Shown: one piece after another, positions 1-64,000 of the stretch
Layout: every line of letters begins with the position of its first letter
Position numbering within the stretch: the first letter of the stretch is position 1
IMG/VR virus record: IMGVR_UViG_3300023115_000018
Coordinates: 11,101-75,100 of that record
DNA from: a virus
Lineage: Duplodnaviria; Caudoviricetes
DNA length: 64,000 bases
Direction: 5' to 3' (one strand)
Notes under the pieces: generated by a model
Database searches by the model: none
The model's input: only the letters and a program-made list of their open reading frames with translations
Told to the model about the DNA's origin: nothing
Position numbers and translations under genes: made by a program

Positions 1-603
1 GATGATATTTCAACAAATGTTGAAAATAAGAAAGTAATTAGTTTTAATTTTGATTCAAACTTCGATGTGCTTGGAAATATTACAAAGGGGTTTTATAATT
101 CAGAAGTTTATGCTGTGGATTTACTAACACGACAGGTTAATAATTATACACACTCATATTGGGAAAATTATGGAGACTACAAGTACTTGGACAGTAATAC
201 TTTTCAAGATACTACTGGTCAAGGAATGCAATATAAACCAAAAAACTTATATGTTGTTCCAGAAAGAGACTTGCAGGGTGGGAATCCTACATTTAATCAG
301 GAAAAACTCTTTCTTCCAAGATTGTTTTATATGCAGTTGATGAAAAACATAAAAGTAACTATTACTGTTTTTGGGGATACTGATGTTTGTGCTGGAGATG
401 TCTTAGAACTTGAAATGCCAATATATCAAAGAGATAACACAGGAACAAACAAATATTATAGTGGAAAGTATTTAGTGTTTGCAATTAGACATAGAATTGA
501 GGGTGGAAGATATCAAACTGACATTGAGTTGGTTAGAGATAGTATCGGACTTCCGTTACCAGCGGAACAGCCAACGCCTCCATCGGGTGGGAGTATACAA
601 TAA
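1..603 (+). CDS. Baseplate hub / tail protein (gp27-like, late control D-type), 5' end outside window
   Basis: Frame 1 is open from base 1 to TAA at 601-603. The C-terminal motif 'GDxxVxAGDVLEL...YSGKYLVFAIRHRI...TDIELVRDS' is typical of T4-like hub proteins. It lies directly upstream of gp5 with a TAATG overlap. Confidence 0.65.
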   Translation, partial: DDISTNVENKKVISFNFDSNFDVLGNITKGFYNSEVYAVDLLTRQVNNYTHSYWENYGDYKYLDSNTFQDTTGQGMQYKPKNLYVVPERDLQGGNPTFNQEKLFLPRLFYMQLMKNIKVTITVFGDTDVCAGDVLELEMPIYQRDNTGTNKYYSGKYLVFAIRHRIEGGRYQTDIELVRDSIGLPLPAEQPTPPSGGSIQ

Positions 604-2903
604 TGGATATGAATATGTTTTCGGGTAGAGAAGGAATGGTTTGGTGGCAGGGTGTTATCGAAGACGTAAAAGACCCAGAAGCTCTTGGACGAGTAAAAGT
701 TAGAATTATTGGATGGCATACTGCAGACAAGGCACTTCTTCCCACAGAAAAACTTCCATGGGCATCTCCAATTATGCCCATAACTAGTTCGTCCACTGGT
801 GGTATCGGACAATCTCCAACGGGCGCATTGCCTGGTGCATGGGTTATGGGATTTTTTAGAGATGGCGAACAGGGACAAGATCCTATAATTTTTGGAACAG
901 TTTATGGTCGTCCCACAGAGGGTTCGGAAACAAATGCAGATGGAACATATCCTTCAGATAGTGGATCAGTATTCGGTGGTTCTACTAAAAATGAGTCGGA
1001 TGTTAATAGACTTGCAAGGGGTGTAAGTGATAGTACATCTAATACAAATGGTGGAGATGAAAATACATCTTCTTCTGGAAATGCGACTGAATGTGGGAAA
1101 GAAGTTAACCAAGATGGTGTTTCAAGTGATAAAGAAAATAGAAAAAGACTTAGTAAGATTACTACAAAGTCTGGTAAAAGTGCTTGGGTTGCTACAGTAT
1201 TTAAAGATCAGTTCCAAGGATTTGTGAATGAACTTGAGAGTACAGGATATGTTATTAAAAGTATTGGTGGATATGCATATCGAAAAAATGTAAATAATCC
1301 AAGTAGATTTAGTTACCATGCTAGTGGTGCTGCAATTGATATTAATCCCGCCGAGAATCCTAATGGGAATACACTAATAACAGATATGCCAGACGGCGTA
1401 TCATCTATTGCCAGAAAGTATGGACTAGGTTGGGGAGGTGATTGGAATAGTGTTAAGGATGCAATGCACTTTAGTGCAGCATCTGGAGAAAGAGGATCTA
1501 CTCCCTTAAAACGAAATGGTATTGTTCCTGACCCAGCATCAGGCAGTCAAACCGAAAGTTCTTCTGGTGGCGGTACTGATAAGCCAGGAGAGAGTCAAGA
1601 ATGTGATACCGTAACAACCAGTGAATCGGGCGCAACTTCTAGTAGGTCTGCAGATACAGCAGCGCAACAACAAAGTCAGGCACCATCTGCAAGTGCAACA
1701 CAATGGTCTGCTGGGAAATCTTATAATGAAGGCGATTTGGTAAAATCTCCACCACTGGCAGAAGGAGAAGAGTCTGGTGGGCCTCCATACACAATGCGTT
1801 CTGGAACTTTGGCAGCTGCCGAAGCACTTGGAATTAGTGCGATCGATCTTGCAACTGTGATGTCTTATGAAACTGGTGGTACACTTGACCCTCAAAAAAG
1901 AGGGCCTACTACTAAATGGGGTCAACATAGAGGACTTATTCAATTTGGAGAACCGCAGGCAAACCAATATGGCGTAGACTTCAGTACTCCACAGACAGCA
2001 ATAGACACCCAACTTGGCCCAAGTGGTGCGGTAGTTAAGTATTTGCGAGATAAAGGTGTCAGGCCCGGCATGGGTAGACTAGAAGTTTATTCTGCAATCA
2101 ATGCTGGTGGTATCGGAGAAAAGTATTATAGTCGTTCAGATACCGCAGCTGGCGGGGCGGCAGGGACTGTTAGAGATAAAGTAAACAATCAGATGGAAGG
2201 TCATGAAAGAAACGCCAGACGACTTCTGGCGGGTTCTAATGATAGTACATTTGTTCAACAAAAAACCTTTATTGCGAAAAACTCTGGAACATCTGATACG
2301 GATGGCAACGGCCCAACTTCTGCAAGTTTAAAGGATGGTGATATTCTTTGGGAAGTATATGAAGATCCATTACCAGAGATAGATGATGCAGTGGAAGAAG
2401 GCAGTGTGGTAGATGTGGATCAGTCTCCATCAACGTTCAATGCAAACTCTGGAAACTCTTCATATGGACAGGATACATACAACCCACGTTCTATTGTTGA
2501 AATGAAAAAAGAAAGTACAGAAAGTACAGAATTATTTGATGAACCACCAACACCATATGCCGCAGAGTATCCACATAATAAAGTGTTATCTACTGAATCT
2601 GGGCATCATCAAGAATTTGATGACACGCCGGGGGCAGAAAGAATACATACATATCATAGATCTGGAACATTTGAAGAAATACATCCAGATGGTTCTGTAG
2701 TTACAAAGGTTGTTAAGGATAATTATGAAATTATCTTTGGTAATGATAATATTTACGTCAAGGGAACGATTAATGTTGTTGTAGATGCAGATGTAAATAT
2801 TAGAATAGGTGGTAATGTCGATGCAAAGGTTGGTGGAACAATTGATACTGAATCTGGTGGGAATACCACAATAAAAGCACCAAACATTCATTTAAACCCA
2901 TAA
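603..2903 (+). CDS. gp5: Baseplate central spike gp5 with inserted M15 peptidase and lysozyme-like domains
   Basis: N-terminal gp5 OB-fold (WWQGVIEDVKDPEALGRVKVRIIGWH...LPWA...GAWVMGFFRDG) and C-terminal 'YPHNKVLSTESGHHQEFDDTPGAERIHTYHRSGTFEEI' plus a short beta-helix ending IHLNP. Internal SYHASGAAID...WGGDW...DAMHF (M15 zinc peptidase) and SYETGG...GLIQFG (lysozyme-like). Confidence 0.93.
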   Translation: MDMNMFSGREGMVWWQGVIEDVKDPEALGRVKVRIIGWHTADKALLPTEKLPWASPIMPITSSSTGGIGQSPTGALPGAWVMGFFRDGEQGQDPIIFGTVYGRPTEGSETNADGTYPSDSGSVFGGSTKNESDVNRLARGVSDSTSNTNGGDENTSSSGNATECGKEVNQDGVSSDKENRKRLSKITTKSGKSAWVATVFKDQFQGFVNELESTGYVIKSIGGYAYRKNVNNPSRFSYHASGAAIDINPAENPNGNTLITDMPDGVSSIARKYGLGWGGDWNSVKDAMHFSAASGERGSTPLKRNGIVPDPASGSQTESSSGGGTDKPGESQECDTVTTSESGATSSRSADTAAQQQSQAPSASATQWSAGKSYNEGDLVKSPPLAEGEESGGPPYTMRSGTLAAAEALGISAIDLATVMSYETGGTLDPQKRGPTTKWGQHRGLIQFGEPQANQYGVDFSTPQTAIDTQLGPSGAVVKYLRDKGVRPGMGRLEVYSAINAGGIGEKYYSRSDTAAGGAAGTVRDKVNNQMEGHERNARRLLAGSNDSTFVQQKTFIAKNSGTSDTDGNGPTSASLKDGDILWEVYEDPLPEIDDAVEEGSVVDVDQSPSTFNANSGNSSYGQDTYNPRSIVEMKKESTESTELFDEPPTPYAAEYPHNKVLSTESGHHQEFDDTPGAERIHTYHRSGTFEEIHPDGSVVTKVVKDNYEIIFGNDNIYVKGTINVVVDADVNIRIGGNVDAKVGGTIDTESGGNTTIKAPNIHLNP

Positions 2904-2912
2904 GAGGAAGTC

Positions 2913-3428
2913 ATGTCAAATTTAAATAGTGCAACAGAAAGACTTGGGATACTACCATCTAAAAGAGATCAATATATTGATTTTGATCTAACGTTTAGGC
3001 GAAATCCAGTCAGTGGAGATGTTTTAATCAAAAAAGATATAAGTTCAATAAATCAAAGTATTAAAAATATTTTATTGACTAATAAACTTGAAAAACCATT
3101 TCAACCAAGGTTTGGTGGAAATGTTTACAATACTTTATTTGATTTAATGACGAATTGGGATTATAGAGGTTCGCCGCATGACATAAATATGCAAGAAGAG
3201 ATAAAACTTGCATTAAAAACCCATGAACCAAGGATAGTAGTTTCTGATGTTAATTTTTTCTCTAGGGAAAGAGTTATGTCATCACTAAAAGGAATAAAAT
3301 CAGAAGACGAAAGAATACGCCAGGCACAGTTAGTAGACAATAATACCTTAGAGATTAGTATAGTATACAACGTTCCTGCATCTGAAGAAGATATATCATT
3401 TCAATTTAGTATAAAAAGAGTACGATAA
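2913..3428 (+). CDS. gp25: Baseplate wedge subunit gp25
   Basis: 'YIDFDLTF...SINQSIKNILLTNKLEKPFQPRFGG...LF...EPRI' gp25/GPW motif, located between gp5 and gp6. Confidence 0.92.
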   Translation: MSNLNSATERLGILPSKRDQYIDFDLTFRRNPVSGDVLIKKDISSINQSIKNILLTNKLEKPFQPRFGGNVYNTLFDLMTNWDYRGSPHDINMQEEIKLALKTHEPRIVVSDVNFFSRERVMSSLKGIKSEDERIRQAQLVDNNTLEISIVYNVPASEEDISFQFSIKRVR

Positions 3429-5372
3429 ATGGCTAAAAACATAAACATATCAGATTTAAGTTTTGATGGAATAAAAGACAATATCAAAAAATACATGGAG
3501 AACGATAAAGTTTTCAAAGATTATAACTTTGATGGTTCTGCATTGTCTAGCATACTCGACATACTATCATATAATACCTATTATAACTCATATTATATGA
3601 ATATGATTGCAAACGAAAGTTTTTTAGACACAGCAAGAATTCGTGAGAATGTTGTATCCAAGGCAAAGTTGTTGGGTTATACTCCACGTTCTAATAAGTC
3701 TGCGACTGCATTGGTTGCAGTAACATTTAAGATTATTAGAAAGAATAGACAAGAAAGAGATTATCAATATAACACATTAAGAATCGATAGACAACTTGCA
3801 TTTTCTACTTCTATTGACAACGAATCTTTTGTTTTTGTTCCGAAGGTTTCTAGGTCAATTACAAGGTCACGCTCTGCAGCAGAACCAGATGGTTCAAGGG
3901 CTCATTACTATACTATAAACGATTTAGAATTGTTTCAAGGTCAACAAGTGGAAGAAAAGTTTGTTGTTGATATTAACAATCCAAATCAAAAATTTATTTT
4001 ATCTAACGAAAATGTAGATACTGACACTATTCAAGTTCTAGTACAGGCAAGTGCAGACGATGATGTTGTTTCTGAATTTAATTTAGCAACTGATACTACA
4101 CAACTTTCGGATATTTCTAAAACATATTTTCTTCAAGAATCTAAAGATATGAAATATGAAATATTTTTTGGTGATGGTGTTCTTGGGGATGAAGTGGAAA
4201 ATGGAAATATAATTACTGTTCGTTATATTACAACAAAGGGCGCCAATGGAAATGGTATTACTGGAAGACTTACTGCGATTGCATTACCTAAAGGCGTAAT
4301 CGTTGATACTGAAAATGTTCAGATTATTGGTGAGAGTTATGGTGGTGCTGACAGAGAAGATATTGAGTCTATTAAGTTCTTTGCACCAAGGACATTTGAA
4401 AGTCAGAACAGAGCAGTTACCGCTAGAGACTATAAGGCGATTGTTCCACAAATTTATCCAGAGGTAGACACAATGAATGTTTGGGGTGGGGAAGACAACG
4501 ACCCTCCTGCATATGGTTCTGTATTTATGTCTATTAAACCGAATACTGGACTAATTCTTTCCACTCAAGAAAAACAGTATATTTTAAATCAGTTAAAAAG
4601 TAATTATTCGGTTCTTACTCTTTCGCCTCAAATTGTCGACCCTGATTATTTGAAATTGAAGATAACCACAAATGTAAAGTATAATGATGAGGCGACTTTA
4701 TTAGATGAGTCATCTTTGAAAGAATCTGTAAGACAAACTATCATTTCTTATAATAATGAGTTTTTAAACGAATTTAATAGTTATTTTAGATATTCACAGT
4801 TTTTGTCTGCCATTGATAAAACCGATGATTCTGTTACAAATAATATTACAGAAATTTTGATGATTAATGAAAAAACTCCAGTATATAATGGTGTTGCGTC
4901 ATACACATTTAATTTTAATAATGCAATACGTCCTAATAGTTTGTATTCTAATGCATTTACTATTTCTGGTTCAAGTGACCCACATTATATTGAAGATGAT
5001 GGATTGGGCGGATTGAGAATATACACATTAACTCCATTGTTCGCTAGAAAATATAATAATGTTTTGGGTGGAACTATAAACTATGGAACTGGTAAAGTTG
5101 TTTTAAATGATATTCAGATTAGTGGTATCGTTGGTTCAACTGTTTTAGGTTTGGTTGCAGAACCAGAATCTAATGATATATTTCCTGTTCGCAATCAAAT
5201 TATCTTTATTGATTATGACGAACTTGATATTGTAATGATGCCTGATACAGATGAATTTAATGTGAACTACGATATCTCTTCACAGAGAGTGGTTGTCACT
5301 AGATCACTTAGAACAACATATAATACATCACAGGCAAGTATTACAAATGTAATATCTGATACTACAACATAA
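3429..5372 (+). CDS. gp6: Baseplate wedge subunit gp6
   Basis: 'LSFDGIKDNIK...FKDYNFDGSALSSILDILSYNTYY...NESFLDTA', 'YEIFFGDGVLG' and 'QNRAVTARDY...VWGGEDNDPPAYG'; 647 aa. Confidence 0.95.
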   Translation: MAKNINISDLSFDGIKDNIKKYMENDKVFKDYNFDGSALSSILDILSYNTYYNSYYMNMIANESFLDTARIRENVVSKAKLLGYTPRSNKSATALVAVTFKIIRKNRQERDYQYNTLRIDRQLAFSTSIDNESFVFVPKVSRSITRSRSAAEPDGSRAHYYTINDLELFQGQQVEEKFVVDINNPNQKFILSNENVDTDTIQVLVQASADDDVVSEFNLATDTTQLSDISKTYFLQESKDMKYEIFFGDGVLGDEVENGNIITVRYITTKGANGNGITGRLTAIALPKGVIVDTENVQIIGESYGGADREDIESIKFFAPRTFESQNRAVTARDYKAIVPQIYPEVDTMNVWGGEDNDPPAYGSVFMSIKPNTGLILSTQEKQYILNQLKSNYSVLTLSPQIVDPDYLKLKITTNVKYNDEATLLDESSLKESVRQTIISYNNEFLNEFNSYFRYSQFLSAIDKTDDSVTNNITEILMINEKTPVYNGVASYTFNFNNAIRPNSLYSNAFTISGSSDPHYIEDDGLGGLRIYTLTPLFARKYNNVLGGTINYGTGKVVLNDIQISGIVGSTVLGLVAEPESNDIFPVRNQIIFIDYDELDIVMMPDTDEFNVNYDISSQRVVVTRSLRTTYNTSQASITNVISDTTT

Positions 5373-5390
5373 CAGCAGAAGTTAAATTAA

Positions 5391-8300
5391 ATGGATAGAA
5401 CTAATTTACAAAATATTGCATCTAGGATAAGAGAACAACTTCCTACTTATTTAAACAGTAGTGAATATGATAACTTTGTTCGTTTTTTAGAACTGTATTA
5501 TGAATGGTTGGCACTAGATGACAATGTTAGTAATGTCACTGGAAAAATTACTTCACTTACAGACTTAGACGAAACTTTTGATGTTTTTGTTCAAGAGTTT
5601 AAGTCTGAACTTGCTGGCGCATGGCCAACCATTACCAAGATTAAAACAAATACTCAAATTGCAACTGAAATTTTGCAAGAAGCAAACAATGGCGAAAATG
5701 CAGAAACATCTATAGATACTACTGCTGACCAAGAATTTTTTACTGACGGCGTTTCTGCAAAATATGTAATGGATTATTTTAATCCCTTTTATTATTTCTC
5801 AGATCAAGATGTAGACACAAAAGTTACTAAGATACGAGTCTTTATAAATGATGTCAATTTTGCTGGAAGAGTTGGGGAATCTTTAAGTGAGGTTGTGGAA
5901 AATTTAACACCCCCAAATGATGATCCAACTGGAAGTACTGGTGATTGGGTCGAGTTAATTGAAGGGATTGACTATAGACTTTTAGAAAATTCTATTATTT
6001 TTCAAGACGAAAATAACGATCCGATTGTCCACGATAATCGTGATATTATAAAAATAAGATTTTATTTGAGAACTTTTGTAAGTCCTATTGCAGACGCAGA
6101 TACTGAATCTGCAATCCAAAAATTAGTAGAAGAAAGTGGAAAAGAAAAAACCAGATATACTAATGAAAGAAACTTTTTAAAGTTAATTAATAAGTTCTAT
6201 AAACAAAAGGGCAGCGAAAGTTCCTATAAATTTTTGTTTAGGGCGCTGTTTAATGAAGATATAGAAATATATTACCCAAAAGAAAACTTGTTAAAACCAA
6301 GTTCTAATACTTGGCAAACACTAACAAGTCTTAGGACTGTTCCGTATGAAGGCCCAGTTAAGATCAATCAACCACTGTTCATTGAAGGTGCGTCTAGTGG
6401 TGCCTCAGCAAATATTGAATATTTCAATGATTATACTTTAGGTGATTATAAAGTTCGTGAATATGTAATTAGTTCTATCAATGGTGAGTTTTCTAGTAAA
6501 GAAACTGTAAAAATAAAACAAATAGATTCGTCCATTTATGAAGAAAGTTTATATGAGTGTGTTGTAGGATTTGAAATAGAAAATCCTGGCGAAGATATGC
6601 CAAGAAATTTGACATTACAAAATAATTTATCTTCGAATGGGAGTGGTTATGGTTTTGCTGCAAAAATTGCACACACTTCTTACGGCCCAGTTGAAAATAT
6701 CAAAATTGTTAATAATGGAGATCAGTATATTACTGGGGAAACAATTGAGTTTCAAAATGGTAATACATTAGGTTCATACGCTATTGGACAAATTAGTTCT
6801 ATTCAATCTGTTAAAAATAATTTTAGTGTTTCGTTTTTTCAAAATCCAGAAAGTTTAGAATATCCAGTCATGTCATTTGATATTGGACTGTCTGGTTATG
6901 ATTTTGGCCCAAGAGCTCAGAATCCAACAGTTACAATAGAGAATATAGATTATCTCTATGATGATGTTTTTTATCTATATGACTATGAAGACATTTATAA
7001 TAGAAAAATCACACATCAGGCCCAAACATTTTTTGCCGCTGTCAAAGATTATAAAACTGGGGAGTTGAGTTCGACTTATAGAAGTTCTATAACTCCAGTC
7101 GAAGATCCACCATTCATAATTACAAATTTAAACGAGGGCGACCCCACAGAATATAGATTAAGAACAGACTTGGAGTTTCAAGTTACATCTGTAAATGAAT
7201 TTGGTGGTATTACTGGAGTTTCAATCACAAATAACTTAGCAAGTCCAACCAATGTTTTCCCACAAGTCGCAGATGTGAGAAATCAAATCGCAACTTACCA
7301 TCAGGGAAGGGGTGTTGGTGCGTTATTTGATGTTACATATCTTGATAATGTAATAACTTCTGTCACTTTAGGAAGTCAAGATAATTCTAAACATTATGTT
7401 CCTGGCGATTTTATTAAAATTGACGGTGAACAATTTTATAATGGTGTATCTGGTGTTCACGATATCTTTATAAAAGTATTAACAGTCACAGGTGGCGCAG
7501 CCTACTTAAATCTAGACGCATCTTCATACACTACAACCTCTAGAATTGGTTCTGGTGCCGTGTGGGATATTGATACAGACGAACCAACTTATCCGCAAAA
7601 TCTTTCTGTTCTTTTGAGTGATGCAAATGGTCAAGGAATTTTATCACCAACCACGAATTATATTGTCGGTGATAAATTTACAATTTTGGGTTCTGTTGTA
7701 GGTGGTACTGACGGAGAGAATGACATAACAATTACCGTTACACAAGTCAACGATGAAGGACGAATTGAAGATTTTGAAGTTTTTGCTAATCCAATAGGTG
7801 GACATATATCAACATTTGAAGTTTTAAATCCAACAACTCCGATGCCAGATGGATATTCATATTACTACGCACCACAATATACCGCTTCTACTCAAAATGG
7901 CGGAACTTCTGGTACTGGTGCAATATTTAATTTTATTAGAAGAGATGGAACAACATATTATGTAACAAATCCTGCATCAAGATTTAATGGAATTAACTAT
8001 TCTGTTGGCGATTCAATTACAATACTTGGTAGTGAATTGGGAGGTGTTGATGGAATCAACGATCTAGTTTTTGATGTAATTAAGATTGACGATAATGGTG
8101 GCATATTACAGATTGGAAATATTACTGGTACGGCGATTAATTCATCACCAGAAAATCTAAACAAAAATGAAAATCTAGTTAGTGTTATGACCAATGGTTA
8201 TGGTGCAACTTTTGACATTAACATCAATAATGGTGTGTATACTGTTACACCAAATCAACCAGGCGCTAATTATCTTGAAGGACAAAATTTTAAGATTAAA

Positions 8301-11300
8301 GGTTATAAGTTAGCGCACCAATACTTAAAAGAAGGATTTAAGGCGGGACTTGCAAAAGTTGGAGATCACGCATTATACACAGATTATGGATGGTTGAGAA
8401 GTGATAACATCGATCTAAAATTTGATACTGAATTAACTAATAAAGAACTGACAATAGATTTTTGGTATTTTAGAAAATCTATTTCTATTACAGATATAGA
8501 TTCGCCTGGCGGCGTCATCTTTGCAATCAATAGTGAAGATGGTGGAACTCAGCATTTAACTCTTTGGCAAAATTATGATGGTACTATTGATTTAATCGAT
8601 TCTTCTGGTAATACGCTTGGCGCAAGGTCAGTACCATTTGGAGAATGGAACCACATTGCAGTTTATTTTTCTAACAACGGAACTTCTATCTATTTGAACG
8701 GACAGTTAGAAAACACGATTCCTGGCGTCAATATGTTAAATTATAGTACAAACTCAAATTTCTATATTGGCGCAAGACAAATTGTAGATGGAAATTCTTT
8801 AGTAATTATGAATGATTATACTCTAGGTTTCTTTGGTGCATTTAGAATGACCAAAGGAGAAAGATATATTGCTAGTTACGAATCCAATATTAATTTAGAA
8901 GGAGATCCAGCAGCAGTCGAGGCTGCATTTGATGATTGGTACAGATTTTCACATTCTGGTGCATCATCATACCAAGCAACCCCCAGTGACTTGTCTGCAT
9001 GGATTTATAACTCTAGTACAAATAGTATCGAATGTACTGCAAATACATCTAGTTTTACTGGTTTTATCGGCCCAACTCCTGCAACAAACTTAGAATTTGA
9101 ATCTGTTTTGTCAAGTACTTCAAGTGACGATGATACACTTGCACTTATTATTGGATTTGTGACTAATGGACTTCAGCCGACAGACGCTGGATATAAAGAA
9201 TATACTTTGAGTGCAGTCAGAAATATGGGTGGAACTAATCCTTCAGTCGGTTGGGGATTAGTATATAATTATCTACAAGATGATCAGATTATTCTTGAAA
9301 CTTCAAATGTACCATTTATTTCTGGTGGATGGAGTGCAAATGGTGCCACAAAAGTAAAAGTAATAAAAAATGGTGCAAATGTATATGCAACTACTTCTCA
9401 AAATGGGTCAACTTCTTTAGATTCCTCAACTACACTTTATGTCGATTTAAGTACAAATCCAGTCTTAAATAAATTTGAAGGTGCAATCCAGTGGGGATTT
9501 GGCGCACATAGTCAAGATGCTGCAAACTTTTCATTGTTAGATGCATCGGGGTCATCTACTGGTGTTACAATAGAAGACAAAGGAACACAGAATCCTGTTT
9601 CTGGTAATGGAATAAGTCCAGAACATGTCAATCCTGTTCCCTTTAGACAAGATATTAGACAATCATCCAGATATTTGGAACGAGTTGATGCCGTTGGTGG
9701 AGAAACAGTTGTTGAATTATTCTATGATGCTAATGCTGCGGTGAACATATTCAAAGTTACAGATAGTATTATCGCCCCAGAAAACATTCCAGATTCGTTT
9801 CCAACAAATCCTATAGATCGGTTGATTTGGGAGTGGGCAGACAATTATTATATCTGGATTGATGGTTTGTGGAAAAATTATGTCGAAGTTGACCCATCTG
9901 AGTATAATGCAACAACTGGTACTGCGATAACCTTTACTAGTCCGTTGGGCGCCGGTGATATTATATTGATTAGATATTATGGTGCATTATCAGACAGACT
10001 TGAATATGTTATATTCAATAGTGAATCTTTGGTAGAGCCAAATAAAATAAGATTGAGAAAGTGGGTAGATAATCCTCAAACTCTTGATGACACTATGGCG
10101 CAATATCAATTGCCTGACGCCCATACACTGACTGTTGAATGGGAAGAAATTCCAAAGTCTGGTATTGAGACTACTAGACTTATTACAGGTGGTGAGGGTT
10201 ATATTAGATATCCATATGGAAATGTGGCAAGAGAAACTTTGTCATACACTTCTACTGGTAAAAATGGAGTTTTGCGAGGACTTGGAAAAGATATTGGTAA
10301 AATTAATAGACTAGAAATATATTCAAATCCATTTAGAGAAGATTTTGATGGATTTGGAGTTGGATATGACACACCACCAGAAATTGATTTGAGTAGTTAT
10401 GGTAACGGCCAAGCGTCTATTAAAGTATTAACTGGGCCTCTATGTGTTCGTGAAGGTGTTTATGTCAATCAACAAGGATTTATTTCAGATGATAATCGTA
10501 TTCATGATGGATATCTATGGCAGGATTACTCTTATGTTGTAAAAGTAAACAGATATATTGATGAGTGGAGAAGAATCGTTAAGAAGATTATTCACCCCGC
10601 TGGATTGATGATGTTTGGAGAATTTACTACTCTAACTAAGGCTTCTGTAAGAAAAGGACTTGGAGTTGCATATCGTGAACTCATGTTTGAAATTATTAAA
10701 AATGTTAATTTGAGAATGCGAAATATGGATGGTAGTGGGAGTTGGACATATTCTACTGCACAACAAACTGACATCAATGATTTAAATTCTCATGGTTATT
10801 ATTTTGTATATGATAATCGTCAACTTAGTATTGACAGTGAAATTGATGGCCTTTATCAGGGCGTAGGAACTGGAGAAATATCTGATGATACAGTTGGTGC
10901 AGCAACATTAGATAGTGGGTCTGGTAGATATGCATTATTAGATGAAAATGGAAATAATGCTTTGCGTTGGTCAGATGTAAAGAAAATTGCAATCAACTAC
11001 AAAGATGCGTATGGAAAAGATTATGGGCACTATTGGTCATCTAAAATACTTGGTAACACATTTACAATATATGATACATCTGATGAGAGTATGACTAATG
11101 ATGAATGGATAAATGTAAGACCTTGGGCAAAGTATGTTGTAGAGAGTGTGGAACTAGACCCTGATTATCTTGACAGAATTGCAGTTTTTGATGTGAAGAT
11201 TATTCAGTCTTATAGAGAACTTCCTTCTACCGCTCCTCAAAATAGAGTCGAGTTTAGATGGGACAATATTTGGCGTGGAAATGTAAACAGACAACCAAAC

Positions 11301-12056
11301 TATTGGGTTGGTGCTATTGCAGATGGTGCAAATCCAAGAGATGAAAAAATGGTGATAAATATAACAGGTAAGTATATGTTCTATAAAAACTATACTGGCG
11401 ACCTGCCTACATTGCACACCACATACAGGTCACTAGAAAGGTTTAAGTTTTACTTTACTTCCAGATTCCCTTGGGAAAGGTTGAGACCATTACTATTTAG
11501 TCCTCAGAGAGAAATGGATAATTCTCCATATCTGATAAAACGACCAATTGTAAATGGAAATGGATTGACTCATATTCCTGCAAAGGCAGAAGGCCTTGGG
11601 ATTTGGTATCACTTACCAGTGGATGCAACAGATAATGATTGGATTGCAAATACAGACGGAACAGATCATAATTGGAGAAATACTGTAATTGAAGACATTG
11701 TAAAACTTGCGGATAACAAATATCGTGCAGTTTTAGATTCGTTTATTAATATTTCGCCTGTATTTTTAATAATGAGTGAAGAAGAACCAGATATCCCAAC
11801 TAGAAAAAGACTGGGCCCTACAAATTTAACAATTGAGAGAATAAAATTTAATGATAGATTACAGTCAGGACTTGATTATAACGTAGATAGAATTGACTAT
11901 GACGAAAATTTATTAGACTTGAATACTTTTATAAAGTATCAGGCAGAACATATTCACGATAAGTCAAATGTCGCACCAGAATCGTCTATTGTACTGTATA
12001 ATACGAATCCAACAACAATTGAAGAATTAAATGAACAGATTGTTCTGAAAGACTAA
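5391..12056 (+). CDS. gp7: Baseplate wedge initiator gp7-like protein, enlarged by Ig-like repeats, a LamG domain and a lectin-like domain
   Basis: N-terminal 'QLPTYL...FVRFLELYYEWL', 'FYKQKGSESSYKFLFRALFNEDIEIYYP' and C-terminal 'IHDGYLWQDYSYVVK...WRRIVKKIIHPAGLMMFGE' are typical of marine T4-like gp7. Located between gp6 and gp8. Confidence 0.82.
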   Translation: MDRTNLQNIASRIREQLPTYLNSSEYDNFVRFLELYYEWLALDDNVSNVTGKITSLTDLDETFDVFVQEFKSELAGAWPTITKIKTNTQIATEILQEANNGENAETSIDTTADQEFFTDGVSAKYVMDYFNPFYYFSDQDVDTKVTKIRVFINDVNFAGRVGESLSEVVENLTPPNDDPTGSTGDWVELIEGIDYRLLENSIIFQDENNDPIVHDNRDIIKIRFYLRTFVSPIADADTESAIQKLVEESGKEKTRYTNERNFLKLINKFYKQKGSESSYKFLFRALFNEDIEIYYPKENLLKPSSNTWQTLTSLRTVPYEGPVKINQPLFIEGASSGASANIEYFNDYTLGDYKVREYVISSINGEFSSKETVKIKQIDSSIYEESLYECVVGFEIENPGEDMPRNLTLQNNLSSNGSGYGFAAKIAHTSYGPVENIKIVNNGDQYITGETIEFQNGNTLGSYAIGQISSIQSVKNNFSVSFFQNPESLEYPVMSFDIGLSGYDFGPRAQNPTVTIENIDYLYDDVFYLYDYEDIYNRKITHQAQTFFAAVKDYKTGELSSTYRSSITPVEDPPFIITNLNEGDPTEYRLRTDLEFQVTSVNEFGGITGVSITNNLASPTNVFPQVADVRNQIATYHQGRGVGALFDVTYLDNVITSVTLGSQDNSKHYVPGDFIKIDGEQFYNGVSGVHDIFIKVLTVTGGAAYLNLDASSYTTTSRIGSGAVWDIDTDEPTYPQNLSVLLSDANGQGILSPTTNYIVGDKFTILGSVVGGTDGENDITITVTQVNDEGRIEDFEVFANPIGGHISTFEVLNPTTPMPDGYSYYYAPQYTASTQNGGTSGTGAIFNFIRRDGTTYYVTNPASRFNGINYSVGDSITILGSELGGVDGINDLVFDVIKIDDNGGILQIGNITGTAINSSPENLNKNENLVSVMTNGYGATFDININNGVYTVTPNQPGANYLEGQNFKIKGYKLAHQYLKEGFKAGLAKVGDHALYTDYGWLRSDNIDLKFDTELTNKELTIDFWYFRKSISITDIDSPGGVIFAINSEDGGTQHLTLWQNYDGTIDLIDSSGNTLGARSVPFGEWNHIAVYFSNNGTSIYLNGQLENTIPGVNMLNYSTNSNFYIGARQIVDGNSLVIMNDYTLGFFGAFRMTKGERYIASYESNINLEGDPAAVEAAFDDWYRFSHSGASSYQATPSDLSAWIYNSSTNSIECTANTSSFTGFIGPTPATNLEFESVLSSTSSDDDTLALIIGFVTNGLQPTDAGYKEYTLSAVRNMGGTNPSVGWGLVYNYLQDDQIILETSNVPFISGGWSANGATKVKVIKNGANVYATTSQNGSTSLDSSTTLYVDLSTNPVLNKFEGAIQWGFGAHSQDAANFSLLDASGSSTGVTIEDKGTQNPVSGNGISPEHVNPVPFRQDIRQSSRYLERVDAVGGETVVELFYDANAAVNIFKVTDSIIAPENIPDSFPTNPIDRLIWEWADNYYIWIDGLWKNYVEVDPSEYNATTGTAITFTSPLGAGDIILIRYYGALSDRLEYVIFNSESLVEPNKIRLRKWVDNPQTLDDTMAQYQLPDAHTLTVEWEEIPKSGIETTRLITGGEGYIRYPYGNVARETLSYTSTGKNGVLRGLGKDIGKINRLEIYSNPFREDFDGFGVGYDTPPEIDLSSYGNGQASIKVLTGPLCVREGVYVNQQGFISDDNRIHDGYLWQDYSYVVKVNRYIDEWRRIVKKIIHPAGLMMFGEFTTLTKASVRKGLGVAYRELMFEIIKNVNLRMRNMDGSGSWTYSTAQQTDINDLNSHGYYFVYDNRQLSIDSEIDGLYQGVGTGEISDDTVGAATLDSGSGRYALLDENGNNALRWSDVKKIAINYKDAYGKDYGHYWSSKILGNTFTIYDTSDESMTNDEWINVRPWAKYVVESVELDPDYLDRIAVFDVKIIQSYRELPSTAPQNRVEFRWDNIWRGNVNRQPNYWVGAIADGANPRDEKMVINITGKYMFYKNYTGDLPTLHTTYRSLERFKFYFTSRFPWERLRPLLFSPQREMDNSPYLIKRPIVNGNGLTHIPAKAEGLGIWYHLPVDATDNDWIANTDGTDHNWRNTVIEDIVKLADNKYRAVLDSFINISPVFLIMSEEEPDIPTRKRLGPTNLTIERIKFNDRLQSGLDYNVDRIDYDENLLDLNTFIKYQAEHIHDKSNVAPESSIVLYNTNPTTIEELNEQIVLKD

Positions 12057-12065
12057 AAAATAAAT

Positions 12066-12073
12066 TATAAATA
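12066..12073 (+). promoter_or_regulatory. T4-type late promoter TATAAATA
   Basis: Exact consensus in the intergenic gap, about 33 nt upstream of the gp8 ATG. Confidence 0.8.
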
Positions 12074-12106
12074 GTATAAAATTCATGACACTAAAAAGGT
12101 AAAAAA

Positions 12107-13801
12107 ATGGCAGCGATTATTACAAACAAATTAAGAATTTTCAATGCAATGGAATTCTTACAATCAATTAACAGATCCGCACCTAATTGGAAACCTAACT
12201 ATACCTATGCAGAAGGTGATGTTGTGGTTAACAACCAGAACTCATTTATTGCACTAGGAAATATTAGTGGCACTTCCACAAGTGGTGTTTCTGCTGGTGA
12301 TGGGGATGGTCCAACACCAGATACTCTCCAAGATGGTACTGTACAGTGGGCCCATCAAGGACAATCGGTTTACAATATGCTTTATATGGCAATCGGTAAA
12401 CAAACTCCTTGGTTAAATGATTCAAACCCACCAACACCAGAAGATTCTATTGGTTACTCGTATAGATTTAAATACGATACAATTGCACTTAAGAAAGTCA
12501 ACTACAGTGATATGACTCTTGCAATTCCAAGAATTAACTGGACTTCTGGAAGAGTGTACACTATGTACGAACATGACAATCCAGAAGAAATTATTCCAAA
12601 TGGATATGTAATTGTTGCATCTGGAAATCAATTTAACGTTTATAAGTGTATTAATAACCAAAAATATGATGCTGCTGCCCAAACGGTGACTACAGTTGCT
12701 TCAACAGTACAACCATCAACTACTGGAACTGAAATTGAAGAGACTGCAGATGGTTATAAGTGGAAGTTTATGTATGCAATCGACCTTCAAGATTCTCTTA
12801 AGTTCTTGACAAAAGATTATATTCCAGTTAAAAATCTTCTAGAAGATCCAGTTGCGCCTGGCACCGCTGCTCAGGTACAGTGGGATATCAAACAAGCCGC
12901 ATCTCAACCAAATCCTGGCCAGATTGAACATGTAAAAATTATGCCAAACGAAGAGGGTGGTGCAATTGGTGGAGGATTGGGTTATCATCCAAACATTCAA
13001 CGAACCGCTTCTGTTACACTAACTGGTAATGTTGTTACAATTTCTGGTGTCGATGGTGCGACAGATTATACTGGTTATGATTTAGTAGACCTTGGAAATC
13101 AGGAACAGTTTAGAATTACAAACTGGAGTCTTTCTGGTACAACTGCAACTGCAACTGTAAACGGTTCTTTTACTGGTGGTGCTGGTAGAGATATTCTTAT
13201 TGCGCCCGGCGTTAATATTTCTGGTAATGGTTCTTCTTTCAGTGCATATGGACTTGTCGTAGACCAAAGAATTGAAAAAATTGTTATCACCAGTACTGGT
13301 GCAAATTGGTCTGCTGTAGACAACGCAACTGTAGATGTTGATAATGTTCCAGCATACAATTTCGATGGGACGTTGAATGTTAATGCATGTAAAGTAAAAC
13401 CAATTGTTTCTCCAGAAACTGGACATGGATTTAATCCTGTAGAAGAGTTGGGTGGTTATTATGTAATGACTGCAATAAAACTTGAATATGACGAACAGTC
13501 TACAAGAGAAAATTCTTTGGGGAATTTAGAAACTAAGATTATGTTCCCTGTTGAAGATTCTGAAGCACAGTTTAGACAGATTGCTATTGTCGCTGACCCT
13601 GATGCACAGACTCAGGGCGGTTCTACTCCTGCAAACGAAGAGTCATACAGAGGTCCACAACACCCAGATTTTGGTTCTGCAGATGAAGAAACATTTGATA
13701 TCGTAACTGGTACAGGTAAAGTTCTTTACATCGAAAACCGCCAGCCCGTTTCTAGAGCCATCGATCAAATTGAAGATATTAAAGTAGTATTTGAATTCTA
13801 A
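12107..13801 (+). CDS. gp8: Baseplate wedge subunit gp8
   Basis: 'MAAIITNKLRIFNA', 'IPRINWTSGRVY', 'VYKCINN', 'DGYKWKFMY', 'GHGFNPVEELGG' and 'GKVLYIENRQPVSRAIDQIEDIKVVFEF'. Confidence 0.93.
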   Translation: MAAIITNKLRIFNAMEFLQSINRSAPNWKPNYTYAEGDVVVNNQNSFIALGNISGTSTSGVSAGDGDGPTPDTLQDGTVQWAHQGQSVYNMLYMAIGKQTPWLNDSNPPTPEDSIGYSYRFKYDTIALKKVNYSDMTLAIPRINWTSGRVYTMYEHDNPEEIIPNGYVIVASGNQFNVYKCINNQKYDAAAQTVTTVASTVQPSTTGTEIEETADGYKWKFMYAIDLQDSLKFLTKDYIPVKNLLEDPVAPGTAAQVQWDIKQAASQPNPGQIEHVKIMPNEEGGAIGGGLGYHPNIQRTASVTLTGNVVTISGVDGATDYTGYDLVDLGNQEQFRITNWSLSGTTATATVNGSFTGGAGRDILIAPGVNISGNGSSFSAYGLVVDQRIEKIVITSTGANWSAVDNATVDVDNVPAYNFDGTLNVNACKVKPIVSPETGHGFNPVEELGGYYVMTAIKLEYDEQSTRENSLGNLETKIMFPVEDSEAQFRQIAIVADPDAQTQGGSTPANEESYRGPQHPDFGSADEETFDIVTGTGKVLYIENRQPVSRAIDQIEDIKVVFEF

Positions 13802-13835
13802 TTAAAATAAAAAACCAGTTGAGAGAAGAAGACAC

Positions 13836-20771: not shown

Positions 20772-20783
20772 TTGGAGATTGTA

Positions 20784-20984
20784 ATGAGACTAAAAGTTAA
20801 AGGTAATAAAGACCTTGTTAGAGATACGAACTCGCAAGCGATAATAAATACTGATAACAATGGTTATAATAATTTTATTAGAAGGTCTAATGCACTTAAA
20901 AGGCGTGACGAAGAAATAAGAGACTTACAACAAGAAATGAATGAAATAAAAAACACACTAAACTTAATATTGGAGAAACTTTAA
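20784..20984 (+). CDS. Small conserved coiled-coil protein that typically follows the VrlC-like gene
   Basis: 'KVKGNKDLVRDTNSQAIINTD' plus a C-terminal coiled coil. ATG at 20784 follows a GGAG RBS; the ORF track starts at an upstream TTG. Confidence 0.7.
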   Translation: MRLKVKGNKDLVRDTNSQAIINTDNNGYNNFIRRSNALKRRDEEIRDLQQEMNEIKNTLNLILEKL

Positions 20985-22181: not shown

Positions 22182-22209
22182 TTAATTAGTAAGAGAAGAG
22201 AATTCTAAC

Positions 22210-49669: not shown

Positions 49670-49677
49670 TATAAATA
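49670..49677 (+). promoter_or_regulatory. T4-type late promoter TATAAATA
   Basis: Exact consensus immediately after the PAAR stop, upstream of the GGAG RBS and TTG start at 49707. Confidence 0.78.
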
Positions 49678-49706
49678 ATGTATAAAAGATAAGACGGAGT
49701 TTTTCA

Positions 49707-50639: not shown

Positions 50640-50648
50640 ATTCTTTTT

Positions 50649-50656
50649 TATAAATA
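50649..50656 (+). promoter_or_regulatory. T4-type late promoter TATAAATA
   Basis: Exact consensus upstream of the AGGAG RBS and ATG 50701. Confidence 0.8.
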
Positions 50657-50700
50657 ATAAGAAATAAATAATTGCAATTTAAAATAATAGGAGTTTATTA

Positions 50701-54594: not shown

Positions 54595-54605
54595 TTGAAA
54601 GTTTA

Positions 54606-54642
54606 AGGTTTCGGTCATACTGAGTATGGCCGAACCTAAATA
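54606..54642 (+). other. Intergenic stem-loop without a U tract, followed by a CTAAATA late-promoter-like motif
   Basis: TTCGGTCATAC-TGA-GTATGGCCGAA stem (one G-U pair), extendable by AGG/CCT across a bulge; CCTAAATA at 54635-54642. Confidence 0.55.
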
Positions 54643-54661
54643 GTAAGAAAAGAGGAATTTA

Positions 54662-61339: not shown

Positions 61340-61342
61340 TAA

Positions 61343-63787
61343 ATGACGAATTACGCAACTATAAGATATCAACCAGCGGCAGCAACAACTACAACTGTTG
61401 CGGATATGACTGCGTTGATCGCTGTCACAGGGATGTCTAATGGAGATCAGGCTTTAGTACTATCAAGTAATAACTTGTTTATGTATTCTGGTACTGGTTG
61501 GTATAAGATTGCGACAATTCAAAACGATTCTCCAACAGCAATCACTGGAGTGAATGGAACCTACGAACTTGCAACTGACGGTACACCTACTGTAATCACA
61601 GCAGTTTCTACAGACCCTGAAGGGTTTCCTCTTACGTGGACATATTCTACTTCTGGTTTAGGAAGTATTGCTACAGTATCGCAAGCGGATAATGTATTCA
61701 CAATTACACCCAGTACTAATGATGATAATGGAGGAACTTTTACTCTTACAATTAATGCAACTGATGGTGTTAATGGTGCAGTGAGTGCAAATACATCGAT
61801 AGAACTGGAATTTATTATTACAAATAGTAATTATACAACTTTATTAGCAACAGCGGTTGATACATCAAGTAACAGTAACATTACGGATTCTTCAACAAAT
61901 AATCATACGATCACAGTATTAGGTGACGCTAACGCCGGCACGTTTAGTCCTTATCGTCATGGCGGATATAGTACATATTTCGATGGAACTGGTGACAATT
62001 ACACTGTGCCTAGTGGCCTTCATCTTGGCACTGGTGATTTTACATTTGAATTTTGGATTTGGCCAGATGAAGATTGGACTAATACTGCCGGTAAAATTTT
62101 TATGAACACTGAATCTAGTGGCAGTGGCACCACTTGGACTTTTCATGTATCTAATTATAATGGGTATAATGGTTTAACTTTTGGTTATGGTGTATATGGT
62201 TCTTATACTGTAGGAAAATATGTTGATAATTATTGGGTTCCACAGGGTGAATGGACTCATCTAGTCGCTCAAAGAAGAAACGGAACTATAGAAATTTATG
62301 TAAATGGTGTCAGTCAAACATTGAGTACATATAATGAAAATGGAACTTTTAGTGATAGTGTAAATTTAACAAGCAATCTAACTACAAGAACACTTTTTAA
62401 TGGAGCTAAAGCTTATGTTTCAGACCTAAGATTAGTCACTGGTTCATATGTATATGATGGTGATTTTACACCTTCAACTGAAAATATAACAGCAGTAACT
62501 AACACTACACTATTAACAAATCAAAATCAGTTTCCGTATCTTGTTGATAATTCACCAAATGCATATACAATTACATCAAATGGTAATACATCAATAAAAC
62601 CATTTAGTAGATATGACAATTTCAAATACGAAACAGCCGTTCATGGCGGGTCTGTATATTTTGATGGGACTGACGATGGATTGATTATTCCAGCAGCTGC
62701 TTGGGATAGAGATGCCGACTACACAGTTGAATGTTGGGCATATGCAATCGGAGGCATGACCATTGCATTGTCAAGAAACAGACAAGCCGCTGATGGTGCA
62801 GTTTTCTCTATCGGTGGTAGTTACAAAGTATTCTTGGGTATTGGTAGGGATGATGTCAATACATGGGATTTGACTTATACTGGCAGCGTTGATTTAAGAT
62901 ATCAATGGCATCACCTTGCTTTAACTCACGATGCGAGCGAAAAACGATACAAAATATATGTTGATGGTGTTAATGTTTTCAATGGAACTTCTGCATATCA
63001 TCCGGGCAGTTTAAATACTGTTTTTAACATTGGGTGTGGTGATACTATGAATGCTGGCACGACTTCTTATAGTCAAGGATGGATTGCAGATCATAGAATT
63101 ACAGATAGTATAGTTTATACTGCAAATTTCACTCCACCAACTGCTCCTCTATCTTCAACTGGATCAGTGTTACACATACAAGGCACAGACGCTTCGATCA
63201 TAGATAAGTCTCAAAACGCTAACCTAAAGTTGATTGGTAATACTACTGGTTCAACGACTCAGGTTAAGTTTGCAGACACTAAGTCAATGTATTTTGATGG
63301 CAGTGGAGATTATATAAAAACTTCTGCCAGTACAGATTATGATTTACCGACAGACTTTACTATTGAAGCTTGGATATATCCTACAGCATTATCCAGCAAT
63401 CATCTGATAGTAGATACCTACAGCGCATCTCAAGCGGGTAGTTATCAATTGTATTGGAGAAGTACTGGTGGTAGTTTGGCCTTTTATACTCAAGCAGATG
63501 GTGTATTATTACAGGATCCTAGTGGCTCAAATATCCAAGTCAATACTTGGCACCATGTCGCTGTATCTAGGTCTGGTAATACGATTAGAATGTTTGTAGA
63601 TGGCACACAGGTTAACAGTACTACCCTTACTAGAGACTTAACACATGGAATTCCAGTAGCAATTGGATATCAACAAGCGACAGGTACTAATTATTTTGCT
63701 GGTTATATTCAAGATGTAAGAATTACTAAAGGTCTCGCAAGATACACCGCAAACTTTACACCACCAACAGAACCACTAAAAGGATAA
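61343..63787 (+). CDS. LamG / concanavalin A-like domain virion protein (814 aa), probable receptor-binding or fibre tip
   Basis: Three repeats of 'S.YFDG.GD...DFT.E.W.....WHH.A..R....YV.G...D.RIT...Y..NFTP' and an N-terminal cadherin/Ig-like 'STDPEGFPLTWTY'. Confidence 0.82.
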   Translation: MTNYATIRYQPAAATTTTVADMTALIAVTGMSNGDQALVLSSNNLFMYSGTGWYKIATIQNDSPTAITGVNGTYELATDGTPTVITAVSTDPEGFPLTWTYSTSGLGSIATVSQADNVFTITPSTNDDNGGTFTLTINATDGVNGAVSANTSIELEFIITNSNYTTLLATAVDTSSNSNITDSSTNNHTITVLGDANAGTFSPYRHGGYSTYFDGTGDNYTVPSGLHLGTGDFTFEFWIWPDEDWTNTAGKIFMNTESSGSGTTWTFHVSNYNGYNGLTFGYGVYGSYTVGKYVDNYWVPQGEWTHLVAQRRNGTIEIYVNGVSQTLSTYNENGTFSDSVNLTSNLTTRTLFNGAKAYVSDLRLVTGSYVYDGDFTPSTENITAVTNTTLLTNQNQFPYLVDNSPNAYTITSNGNTSIKPFSRYDNFKYETAVHGGSVYFDGTDDGLIIPAAAWDRDADYTVECWAYAIGGMTIALSRNRQAADGAVFSIGGSYKVFLGIGRDDVNTWDLTYTGSVDLRYQWHHLALTHDASEKRYKIYVDGVNVFNGTSAYHPGSLNTVFNIGCGDTMNAGTTSYSQGWIADHRITDSIVYTANFTPPTAPLSSTGSVLHIQGTDASIIDKSQNANLKLIGNTTGSTTQVKFADTKSMYFDGSGDYIKTSASTDYDLPTDFTIEAWIYPTALSSNHLIVDTYSASQAGSYQLYWRSTGGSLAFYTQADGVLLQDPSGSNIQVNTWHHVAVSRSGNTIRMFVDGTQVNSTTLTRDLTHGIPVAIGYQQATGTNYFAGYIQDVRITKGLARYTANFTPPTEPLKG

Positions 63788-63793
63788 TAGAAA

Positions 63794-64000
63794 ATGGCAA
63801 TCAATTTTCCAGATAGTCCAACAGATGGAGATACACATACAGTTGGTTCAAAGGTTTGGACTTACAACGCAACCAAGGGTGTTTGGATTGCATCTATATC
63901 TGCAATTCCAACAGAAATTGGGGCAATAAATGGTCATATAATTCCAGACACAAATATTACATATGACTTAGGGTCGGCAGAAAAGAAATTTAGAGATTTA
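63794..64000 (+). CDS. Tail fibre-like protein, truncated by window end
   Basis: ATG at 63794 opens MAINFPDSPTDGDTHTVGSKVWTYNATKGVW...GHIIPDTNITYDLGSAEKKFRDL; the last motif also occurs in the 2225-aa fibre. Confidence 0.75.
   Translation, partial: MAINFPDSPTDGDTHTVGSKVWTYNATKGVWIASISAIPTEIGAINGHIIPDTNITYDLGSAEKKFRDL

Follow-up and report, generated by a model that had tools for sequence, protein, structure and literature searches.

A conditional restriction-site footprint in a marine T4-like phage lineage and a possible short-motif DNA modification behind it

The stretch of DNA analysed here (the window, 64,000 nucleotides, 36.7% GC) comprises bases 11101-75100 of one 75.1-kb virus contig, IMG/VR record IMGVR_UViG_3300023115_000018, and its CCWGG, CCSGG and CCGG sites survive almost exclusively where a G precedes or a C follows them. 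Nearly all window genes are encoded on the + strand, among them T4-type baseplate genes (gp5-, gp6-, gp7- and gp8-like), which identify the element as a T4-like myovirus (Table 1), and nine giant fibre-like open reading frames (ORFs) of 1297-2311 amino acids (aa). Homologues of gp59, gp32, baseplate hub, tail-tube, gp2 and gp4 occupy the upstream 11 kb of the contig, and no modification enzyme was found among the genes of those 11 kb. The phage's closest relatives in culture, Methylophilales phage Melnitz, Pelagibacter phage HTVC008M and cyanomyoviruses, share only ~37% aa identity in gp6, and the public sequencing runs in which this DNA occurs carry the labels salt-marsh metagenome, marine metagenome and aquatic metagenome. 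The window holds the tail and baseplate module of a T4-like myovirus that is marine (salt-marsh/coastal), uncultured, ~220 kb in size and related to Melnitz.

The IMG/VR records searched as the window's own lineage are designated G001-G010 and G016-G020, and G011 is a complete sister genome of 203.8 kb. Close relatives in IMG/VR share 96-98% identity in gp6 and ~85-95% nucleotide identity. The head, replication and nucleotide-metabolism modules of the lineage are contributed by G006, G007 and G008 and the remaining gap is filled by G016, so that the gene set closes at about 222 kb, of which the giant fibre genes make up about 60-70 kb (one G001 ORF has 3258 aa). The CheckV value of 85% completeness for the 135.7-kb G001 is therefore an overestimate.

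Table 1. Coordinates of the genes and sites discussed; positions are those of the window unless another record is named.
Feature	Position	Strand	Remark
T4-type baseplate genes	603..20771	+	sites sit in them; not the cause of the pattern
gp5-like (OB + M15 peptidase)	603-2903	+	
gp6-like	3429-5372	+	
gp7-like	5391-12056	+	
gp8-like	12107-13801	+	
DUF4815 giant	13836-20771	+	
Kept site CCT GGC	6585..6590	+	in-frame Pro-Gly; rare GGC gives the 3' C
Kept site G-CCTGG	830..835	+	opposite orientation; 5' G from the preceding codon
GGTCC (GGWCC)	12308..12312		first of only three in the window; site type cannot overlap GCY/RGC
GGTCC (GGWCC)	13652..13656		second of three
GGTCC (GGWCC)	38572..38576		third of three
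Unflanked CCGG (catCCGGgca)	63002..63005		the only one; GGC still overlaps its last G; present too in relative L012
444-aa ORF, TSPPY	G006 41772-43103		own lineage, after gp46; PF01555 match, E 1.7e-6
217-aa PF01555 methyltransferase, TSPPD	G006 43103-43753		own lineage, after gp46; E 1.4e-19
Post-gp46 slot, N4-type PF01555 ORFs	G006 41772-43753		
Post-gp46 slot, C5-cytosine methyltransferase + SAM methyltransferase + 501-aa ORF	G011 20269-24499		
C5-cytosine methyltransferase, Tet_JBP, 427-aa ORF, P-loop nucleotide kinase	Melnitz MZ577097 4010-8090		in a row
Mom-family gene	G001 101557-102354 (L021:1557-2351, minus strand)		outside the window's contig
Mom homologue	Melnitz MZ577097 69571-70380		annotated 'DUF465'
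CsgG, CsgF (curli secretion), FecR-domain protein, CHASE2-adenylate/guanylate cyclase	G001 128777-135011		
Same block	Melnitz 50731-56876		
ThyX, GMP-reductase/IMPDH-family protein, class-3 lipase, further 2OG-Fe(II) oxygenase	G016 7977-8681, 21886-23028		gap region

In what follows a site is termed flanked when it has a 5' G or a 3' C and unflanked when it reads HCC..GGD, and figures given as x vs y are observed versus expected counts. An initial annotation of the window had held that every CCWGG site is flanked and that CCGG sites behave likewise with one exception, in which a GGC overlaps the last G of the site. Counting bore this out: CCWGG sites are flanked in 42 of 42 cases in the window and 49 of 49 in the whole contig, CCGG sites in 20 of 21 in either, and CCSGG sites in 7 of 7 in the contig, including every one in the window. 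The annotation had also found GGWCC at three positions only, and these are indeed the three that exist (Table 1). Markov models of orders 0-4 predict 34.9, 45.7, 56.3, 61.5 and 31.9 HCCWGGD sites, respectively, where none is observed; the single HCCGGD site compares with 54.9, 36.6 and 41.5 expected (orders 0-2), and the three GGWCC sites with 35-57. The departure is equally large against 300 synonymous-codon shuffles, in which HCCWGGD has a mean of 45.7 and a minimum of 35, HCCGGD a mean of 38.4 and GGWCC a mean of 42.7. Flanked CCWGG sites, in turn, are in excess (49 observed; shuffle mean 17.8, maximum 27), and GGCC is enriched (93 observed; shuffle mean 52.5). The bias anticipated by the annotation thus holds under both kinds of null model and is not a codon effect.

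On the coding strand the 49 CCWGG sites are balanced between the two orientations (18 G..D, 22 H..C and 9 G..C), which argues for a cause at the level of double-stranded DNA and against codon usage as the cause. The flank rule is confined to CC-N0-GG and CC-N1-GG, CCN2-4GG being exempt, and no context past position -1 is needed; additional context was looked for and none was found. The footprint is far beyond chance and codon usage.

One feature of the data could nevertheless suggest that the pattern simply follows from a biased use of codons, codon pairs or oligonucleotides, namely that 45 of the 49 kept CCWGG sites in the contig belong to a single dipeptide, as in-frame Pro-Gly codon pairs. 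Since Pro-Gly (CCN GGN) always contains CCNGG, the site cannot be avoided at such pairs. None of the 52 Pro-Gly pairs in the contig lacks the flank: in 23 the flank comes from GGC, the codon before the pair ending in A, C or T; in 18 it comes from a G that ends the codon before the pair; and 11 have both. GGC is thus used in 34 of the 52 pairs, CCT-GGC being the commonest codon pair (23 of 52), whereas it accounts for only 247 (13%) of the 1895 Gly codons of the contig, against 836 GGT, 683 GGA and 129 GGG. Likewise, the preference for GGC or GGG at Gly-Pro, which had been noted in spite of the dominance of GGT and GGA, is found in 38 of 41 pairs. Explanations by codon, codon-pair or oligonucleotide usage are ruled out by this need for a rare codon, by the shuffle minimum of 35 against 0 observed, by Markov expectations of 32-62 and by the strand symmetry of the rule, and we consider them refuted. 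That the flank is selected at each place where the site cannot be escaped provides direct evidence of its neutralising effect on whatever acts there. Defence pressure thereby strongly shapes codon choice, every Pro-Gly pair being steered.

The rule extends well beyond the contig. In G001 all 73 CCWGG, 47 CCGG and 14 CCSGG sites are flanked, with two GGWCC and no CGCG sites, and in G002 the same applies to 74 of 74 CCWGG, 40 of 40 CCGG and 13 of 13 CCSGG sites. The contig and G001 differ at 4,596 of 69,266 aligned columns (~93% identity); they share 47 CC(N)GG sites and have 16 + 23 (39 in total) private ones, with the unflanked CCGG at 63002 as the sole exception across both. Individual sites thus turn over and the rule persists, so that the flank is actively maintained by selection. 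This turnover, together with the absence of any unflanked Pro-Gly pair, lends support to the proposal of the annotation that conditional avoidance alone suffices to read off a protective motif.

More distant genomes obey the same rule. Unflanked CCWGG numbers 0 vs 121 in G011 (119 vs 66 flanked), 0 vs 102 in the cultured, 141.5-kb Melnitz (68 vs 33 flanked) and 0 vs 91 in G022, of which 140 of 141 kb were examined (70 vs 41 flanked); the corresponding figures for CCGG are 10 vs 129 unflanked and 135 vs 70 flanked in G011, and 0 vs 43 and 15 vs 14 in Melnitz. In pooled counts the CC(N)GG rule also holds for 80 metagenomic loci centred on a Mom-family gene described below, with unflanked CCWGG at 0 vs 153, 0 vs 47 and 8 vs 232 in three identity tiers, while loci centred on the Melnitz C5-cytosine methyltransferase (C5-MT) gave 0 vs 54 and 4 vs 311. 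The CC(N)GG flank rule is absent in G013, G021, HTVC008M, Mosig and S-SM2. The set of sites under pressure is itself variable: Melnitz and G011 have purged CTGCAG except where it is G-flanked, whereas it is free in the own lineage (46 sites in the contig and 80 in G001, where it is over-represented, 56 vs 35 unflanked). Hence the pressured sites differ between lineages while the rescue rule remains the same.

All 4-, 5- and 6-mer palindromes were scanned with each of the four flank bases for the combination of unflanked sites purged and flanked sites kept. Within the clade the hits were almost exclusively C-initiated sites with a flanking G, the other hit being a marginal one for TGTACA with flank C in the window's contig. 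A 5' G rescues CCGG, CCWGG and CCSGG in the own lineage; the same three sites plus CCATGG (0 vs 27 unflanked, 11 vs 14 flanked) and CTGCAG (1 vs 35 unflanked, 16 vs 13 flanked) in G011; and CCGG, CCWGG and CTGCAG in Melnitz, where all 14 surviving CTGCAG sites are G-flanked (0 vs 39 unflanked, 14 vs 11 flanked). It does not rescue CATG (which would give GCA) or CGCG (GCG). Since CC- and CT-initiated sites are rescued and CA- and CG-initiated ones are not, the context is GCY, or RGC on the other strand. The palindrome scan proposed in the initial annotation thus showed a dependence on the flanking G that extends past GGC to GCY; as judged from these site contexts, the GGC originally put forward is the subset of GCY/RGC seen with CC..GG sites, too narrow as a strict motif given the rescue of CTGCAG (GCT) and CCATGG in sister lineages.

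Sites unable to overlap GCY (GGWCC, CGCG, GTGCAC and TGCGCA) are fully purged. Conversely, G001, G011 and Melnitz show full depletion of no palindrome with an internal RGC or GCY, whereas relatives that lack the rule have fully depleted ones (AGCT 0 vs 160 and GCWGC 2 vs 80 in G013; GGSCC 0 vs 23 in Mosig). GCGC is uninformative on GCY, as Y-GCGC-R is absent in all genomes, rule-less ones included. Two simpler motifs were rejected: GpC in any context, since GC occurs in CGCG, TGCGCA, GTGCAC, GCATGC and unflanked CTGCAG, all of which are purged, and a flanking G by itself, since CATG, CGCG and GGWCC are not rescued in the clade and GATC is not rescued in Melnitz.

Separately from the palindromes, the trinucleotide AGC/GCT stands at 0.41-0.46 of expectation in the own lineage only (whole contig, G001/G006; both strands alike), with ratios of 0.63-0.90 in six other marine myophage genomes and 1.38 in the Edwardsiella phage ET-ABTNL-9. 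RGCY words other than GGCC are at ~0.2 of expectation in the own lineage and TGCA is 2.4-fold enriched.

The chemistry first suggested for the window was a 7-deazaguanine at GGC, on the model of coliphage CAjan, in which preQ0, the product of a DpdA system, is found at the motifs GA and GGC and prevents cutting by HaeIII (Kot et al. 2020, PMC7544227). CAjan resembles the present case in that partial modification at a short motif shields only the sites that contain it; GGC is part of RGC, and GGCC is not depleted (93 vs a shuffle mean of 52.5). It differs in that GA is not protective here (RGATCY and other GA-containing sites are depleted), in that AGC/GCT also protect, CTGCAG being rescued by a 5' G although the strand reads AGC/GCT and not GGC, and in phage family and hosts. 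Moreover, the transglycosylase family TGT/DpdA (PF01702) gave no match in G001-G005, G006, G011 (100% complete), G013, HTVC008M or Melnitz, whereas 14 of 14 control genomes matched; G016 was not searched. Pfam scans of 40 G001 and G016 ORFs contained no folE, queD, queE or queC, although no search was aimed at these genes. A DpdA transglycosylase placing a preQ0-like base at GGC is accordingly an extremely improbable source of the footprint, and a cytosine modification like the known one at GpC[C/T], or its N4 counterpart, is more likely than 7-deazaguanine.

A precedent for the motif exists among phage C5-MTs that accompany phage TET dioxygenases. In Burke et al. 2021 (PMC8256090), these enzymes were measured to recognise mainly GpC[C/T], a specificity called new there, and P-loop kinases and glycosyltransferases are named as common companions; this is the same GCY motif that we read from the footprint. 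Melnitz, which obeys the flank rule, has a C5-MT (PF00145, E 7e-55, 187 bits), a Tet_JBP protein encoded by gene 6 (PF12851, 43 bits vs a cut-off of 34.9) and a P-loop nucleotide kinase side by side (Table 1). The database record annotates this cassette as a 'modification methylase' and hypotheticals, gene 6 being among the latter, and the passages on methylase, restriction and modification in the Melnitz paper (PMC9004378) describe neither the cassette nor conditional avoidance. G011 encodes a C5-MT as well (PF00145, 197.6 bits), 38% identical to that of Melnitz, directly after gp46 and followed by a class-I SAM (S-adenosylmethionine) methyltransferase.

The own lineage is different. PF00145 has no match in G001-G010 and G016-G020, and DNA polymerase directly precedes UvsX there, so that the Melnitz C5-MT was rejected as a common cause; if the same motif is marked in the own lineage, another enzyme does it. 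The remark in the initial annotation that GpC C5-methyltransferases exist therefore applies in part: published GpC[C/T] enzymes and the Melnitz cassette agree with it, the own lineage without a C5-MT does not. Two N4-cytosine-type methyltransferase-like genes, adjacent to each other in G006 (Table 1), are the candidate writers in the own lineage on sequence grounds; among proteins of solved structure, the 217-aa protein is closest to DNA cytosine-N4 methyltransferases (8s9m/8s9n, E 5e-9). In G006 there was otherwise no match to PF00145, TGT, PF02086 or PF05869, and G001-G005 matched none of PF00145, PF01702, PF00303 (thymidylate-synthase-type dCMP hydroxymethylase), PF01555 and PF02086. As full sets, G006-G010 and G016-G020 were searched for PF00145 only, and MT-A70 (PF05063) was searched in no own-lineage record. 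The two genes lie immediately after gp46, where G011 has its C5-MT, SAM methyltransferase and a 501-aa ORF, and the slot looks like an exchangeable modification locus.

Another candidate is the Mom-family gene used to collect the metagenomic loci. The G001 protein covers positions 4-201 of the 202 of profile PF25680 (E 2.2e-48, 165 bits, above the curated cut-off) and aligns with Mu Mom (8bv8; phmmer, E 2.5e-13) over residues 13-201 with about 30% identity. In this alignment a Ser in ...PRNSEA... lies opposite an Ala, which corresponds to S124A, the mutated catalytic Ser of Mu, only under an assumed numbering offset. The gene occurs in 4 of 5 lineage records, in G011 and in Melnitz; an abundant marine T4-like clade thus carries a full-length Mom-family gene. 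Known Mu Mom modifies adenine in SAS to N6-carbamoylmethyl-adenine in a Gly-tRNA-dependent manner (PMC13219725). A relative of this enzyme (GNAT, tRNA-dependent) with changed specificity could mark GCY/RGC, for example at cytosine N4 or guanine N2. Consistent with this, it is the only known DNA-modification gene common to the three footprint lineages, it is 73% identical between Melnitz and the own lineage (gp6 37%, gp32 50%) and among the two best conserved proteins, and the loci centred on it obey the CC(N)GG rule. On the other hand, Mu Mom targets adenine, and the footprint includes the adenine-free CCGG and CCSGG, whereas the SAS-containing GGWCC and GTGCAC are not spared and are fully avoided. 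In addition, G022 obeys the rule and has syntenic gp32, gp59 and PhoH but no Mom homologue (the record is estimated to be 70% complete), and ET-ABTNL-9 has a homologue (40% identity) but no rescue (CCWGG 0 vs 88). We regard a Mom-type writer as distinctly improbable.

The mark might also come from the host, as an orphan methyltransferase with a GC-containing motif would let phage DNA leave the cell protected at overlapping sites. One footprint over lineages with different phage methyltransferases is what a host-made mark would give. The Melnitz host H5P1 does carry a gene for a DNA methylase of type II, as stated in PMC9004378. The OM43 podophage MEP401 (OP830906), however, has no conditional CCWGG pattern, with HCCWGGD at 30 vs 20.4 expected (it does avoid CCGG, 1 vs 11.8, where the sites are too few to judge). 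We know of no host methyltransferase with a three-base GCY motif, and a host origin appears very unlikely.

A rescue by 5' G occurs at unrelated sites in other marine myophages. In HTVC008M (NC_020484) GATC numbers 0 vs 287 unflanked and 83 vs 93 flanked and GANTC 0 vs 226 and 43 vs 73; GATC in G013 (L219-L224) stands at 0 vs 339 and 84 vs 86, and in Mosig (MT647606) at 0 vs 283 and 19 vs 83. In these three genomes GATC survives only as GGATC/GATCC, GANTC and GCGC being similar, and GGATCT (=AGATCC) occurs in 0 of 88 oriented sites of G013. Few or no modification genes were recognised here among the families searched: HTVC008M had no match to Mom, TGT or the five methyltransferase families tried; Mosig had one short MT-A70 match, TGT, C5-MT and PF01555 not having been searched there; and G013 had one broken PF01555 match, with the Mom search covering only its 57%. 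By contrast, the SAR11 podophage HTVC010P (NC_020481) does not avoid the sites (GATC 79 vs 99 unflanked). Since podophages of the same host species avoid neither GATC/GANTC (HTVC010P) nor CCWGG (MEP401), the pressure is peculiar to myophages, which suggests that it acts through a broader range of hosts or through the myophages' own nucleases.

These observations bear on an explanation that requires no modification at all, in which the driving nucleases, either host restriction enzymes or phage endonucleases directed against host DNA, are intrinsically unable to cut when the site is abutted by a G:C pair whose G is on the 5' side. The rescue of GATC and GANTC in phages with few or no recognised modification genes, and the indifference of podophages HTVC010P and MEP401 to sites that myophages purge, are in its favour. 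It would, however, need many unrelated specificities (CCWGG, CCSGG, CCGG, CTGCAG, CCATGG and elsewhere GATC, GANTC and GCGC) to share the property 'not G at -1', and within one genome rescue follows GCY and not G alone, as there is none for CATG, CGCG or GGWCC. No enzyme with such a rule is known to us. An EcoRII-C-type nuclease was not found in the phages, in a search that matched nowhere and whose control was silent. On balance we hold this explanation to be unlikely. Equally unlikely is a generalisation in which marine T4-like phages as a family would use short-motif marks beside G (GCY in Melnitz-like phages, a GG context for GATC/GANTC in HTVC008M-type phages), made at least partly by unrecognised enzymes or by a Mom-type enzyme acting on a non-adenine base.

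Our preferred explanation is that a phage-encoded modification of the short motif GCY shields flanked sites while unshielded ones are purged, and we give it a probability of roughly one half (0.48). The footprint, its motif, its spread across lineages and their gene content are observed, whereas the existence of a modification, its position on cytosine and the enzyme that makes it are inferred. The phage DNA is under strong selection against CC(N)GG-type sites, GGWCC, CGCG and other palindromic restriction-type sites. A post-replicative mark set by the phage at GCY on one strand (RGC on the other) would make the outer C of GCCWGG, GCCGG, GCCATGG or GCTGCAG the modified cytosine, and a mark on one strand would suffice to block the nuclease. 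Sites unable to overlap GCY, that is GGWCC, CGCG, GTGCAC and unflanked CC(N)GG, are purged, and at Pro-Gly pairs the phage has fixed either GGC, a rare codon for Gly, or a G at the end of the codon before. In Melnitz the C5-MT/TET/P-loop-kinase cassette would be the obvious candidate writer; in the own lineage the putative writers would be the two N4-cytosine-type methyltransferase-like genes, in the slot where G011 has a C5-MT.

Several points weigh against this explanation. A single footprint is shared by phages with different enzyme families (C5-MT only in Melnitz, C5-MT and PF01555 in G011, PF01555-type only in the own lineage), so that convergent GCY specificity is required. The TET search of genomes was matchless in G001, G002, G006, G011 and HTVC008M, albeit matchless everywhere and without a positive control. 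The SPPY motif denotes N4-cytosine methyltransferases by a rule that is not absolute. GCATGC stays depleted even when followed by Y, that is, when it overlaps GCY. Finally, the 5'-G rescue in HTVC008M, G013 and Mosig, where few or no modification genes were recognised among the families searched, means that an unrecognised enzyme or a property of nucleases could be the general cause.

Avoidance of restriction sites by phages and the blocking of restriction enzymes by overlapping Dcm or Dam methylation are classical phenomena. The present footprint resembles them in that palindromes are purged and an overlapping mark on one strand would block cleavage, but it differs in being all-or-none and dependent on a single flanking base, in being steered at dipeptides that force the site, and in being common to a large marine clade. 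A full-text literature search returned no earlier description of flank-conditional site avoidance. With respect to the C5-MT/TET systems, the available portion of PMC8256090 makes no mention of site avoidance, and the own lineage differs from these systems in having no PF00145 in its ~222-kb gene set and no TET match in the uncontrolled search mentioned above. The likeness to phage Mu lies in the full-length PF25680 protein.

If the proposed modification is real, the recognition motif of a DNA modification could be inferred from raw sequence through the flank that spares purged sites, also for uncultured phages. Melnitz virion DNA should then carry modified C at GCY and should resist cutting of the EcoRII/ScrFI/MspI/PstI type only at G-flanked sites. 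If marks of this kind are used family-wide, motifs would be readable for thousands of uncultured phages from sequence alone. The analysis also flags enzymes of the N4-cytosine and Mom types as candidates in an abundant clade of coastal phages and exposes a parallel GGATC-only rule in pelagiphages with few or no recognisable modification genes.

Two further gene groups were noted in the lineage. A block encoding the curli secretion proteins CsgG and CsgF, a FecR-domain protein and a CHASE2-adenylate/guanylate cyclase is present in both G001 and Melnitz, and the gap region covered by G016 encodes ThyX, a GMP-reductase/IMPDH-family protein, a class-3 lipase and a further 2OG-Fe(II) oxygenase (Table 1).

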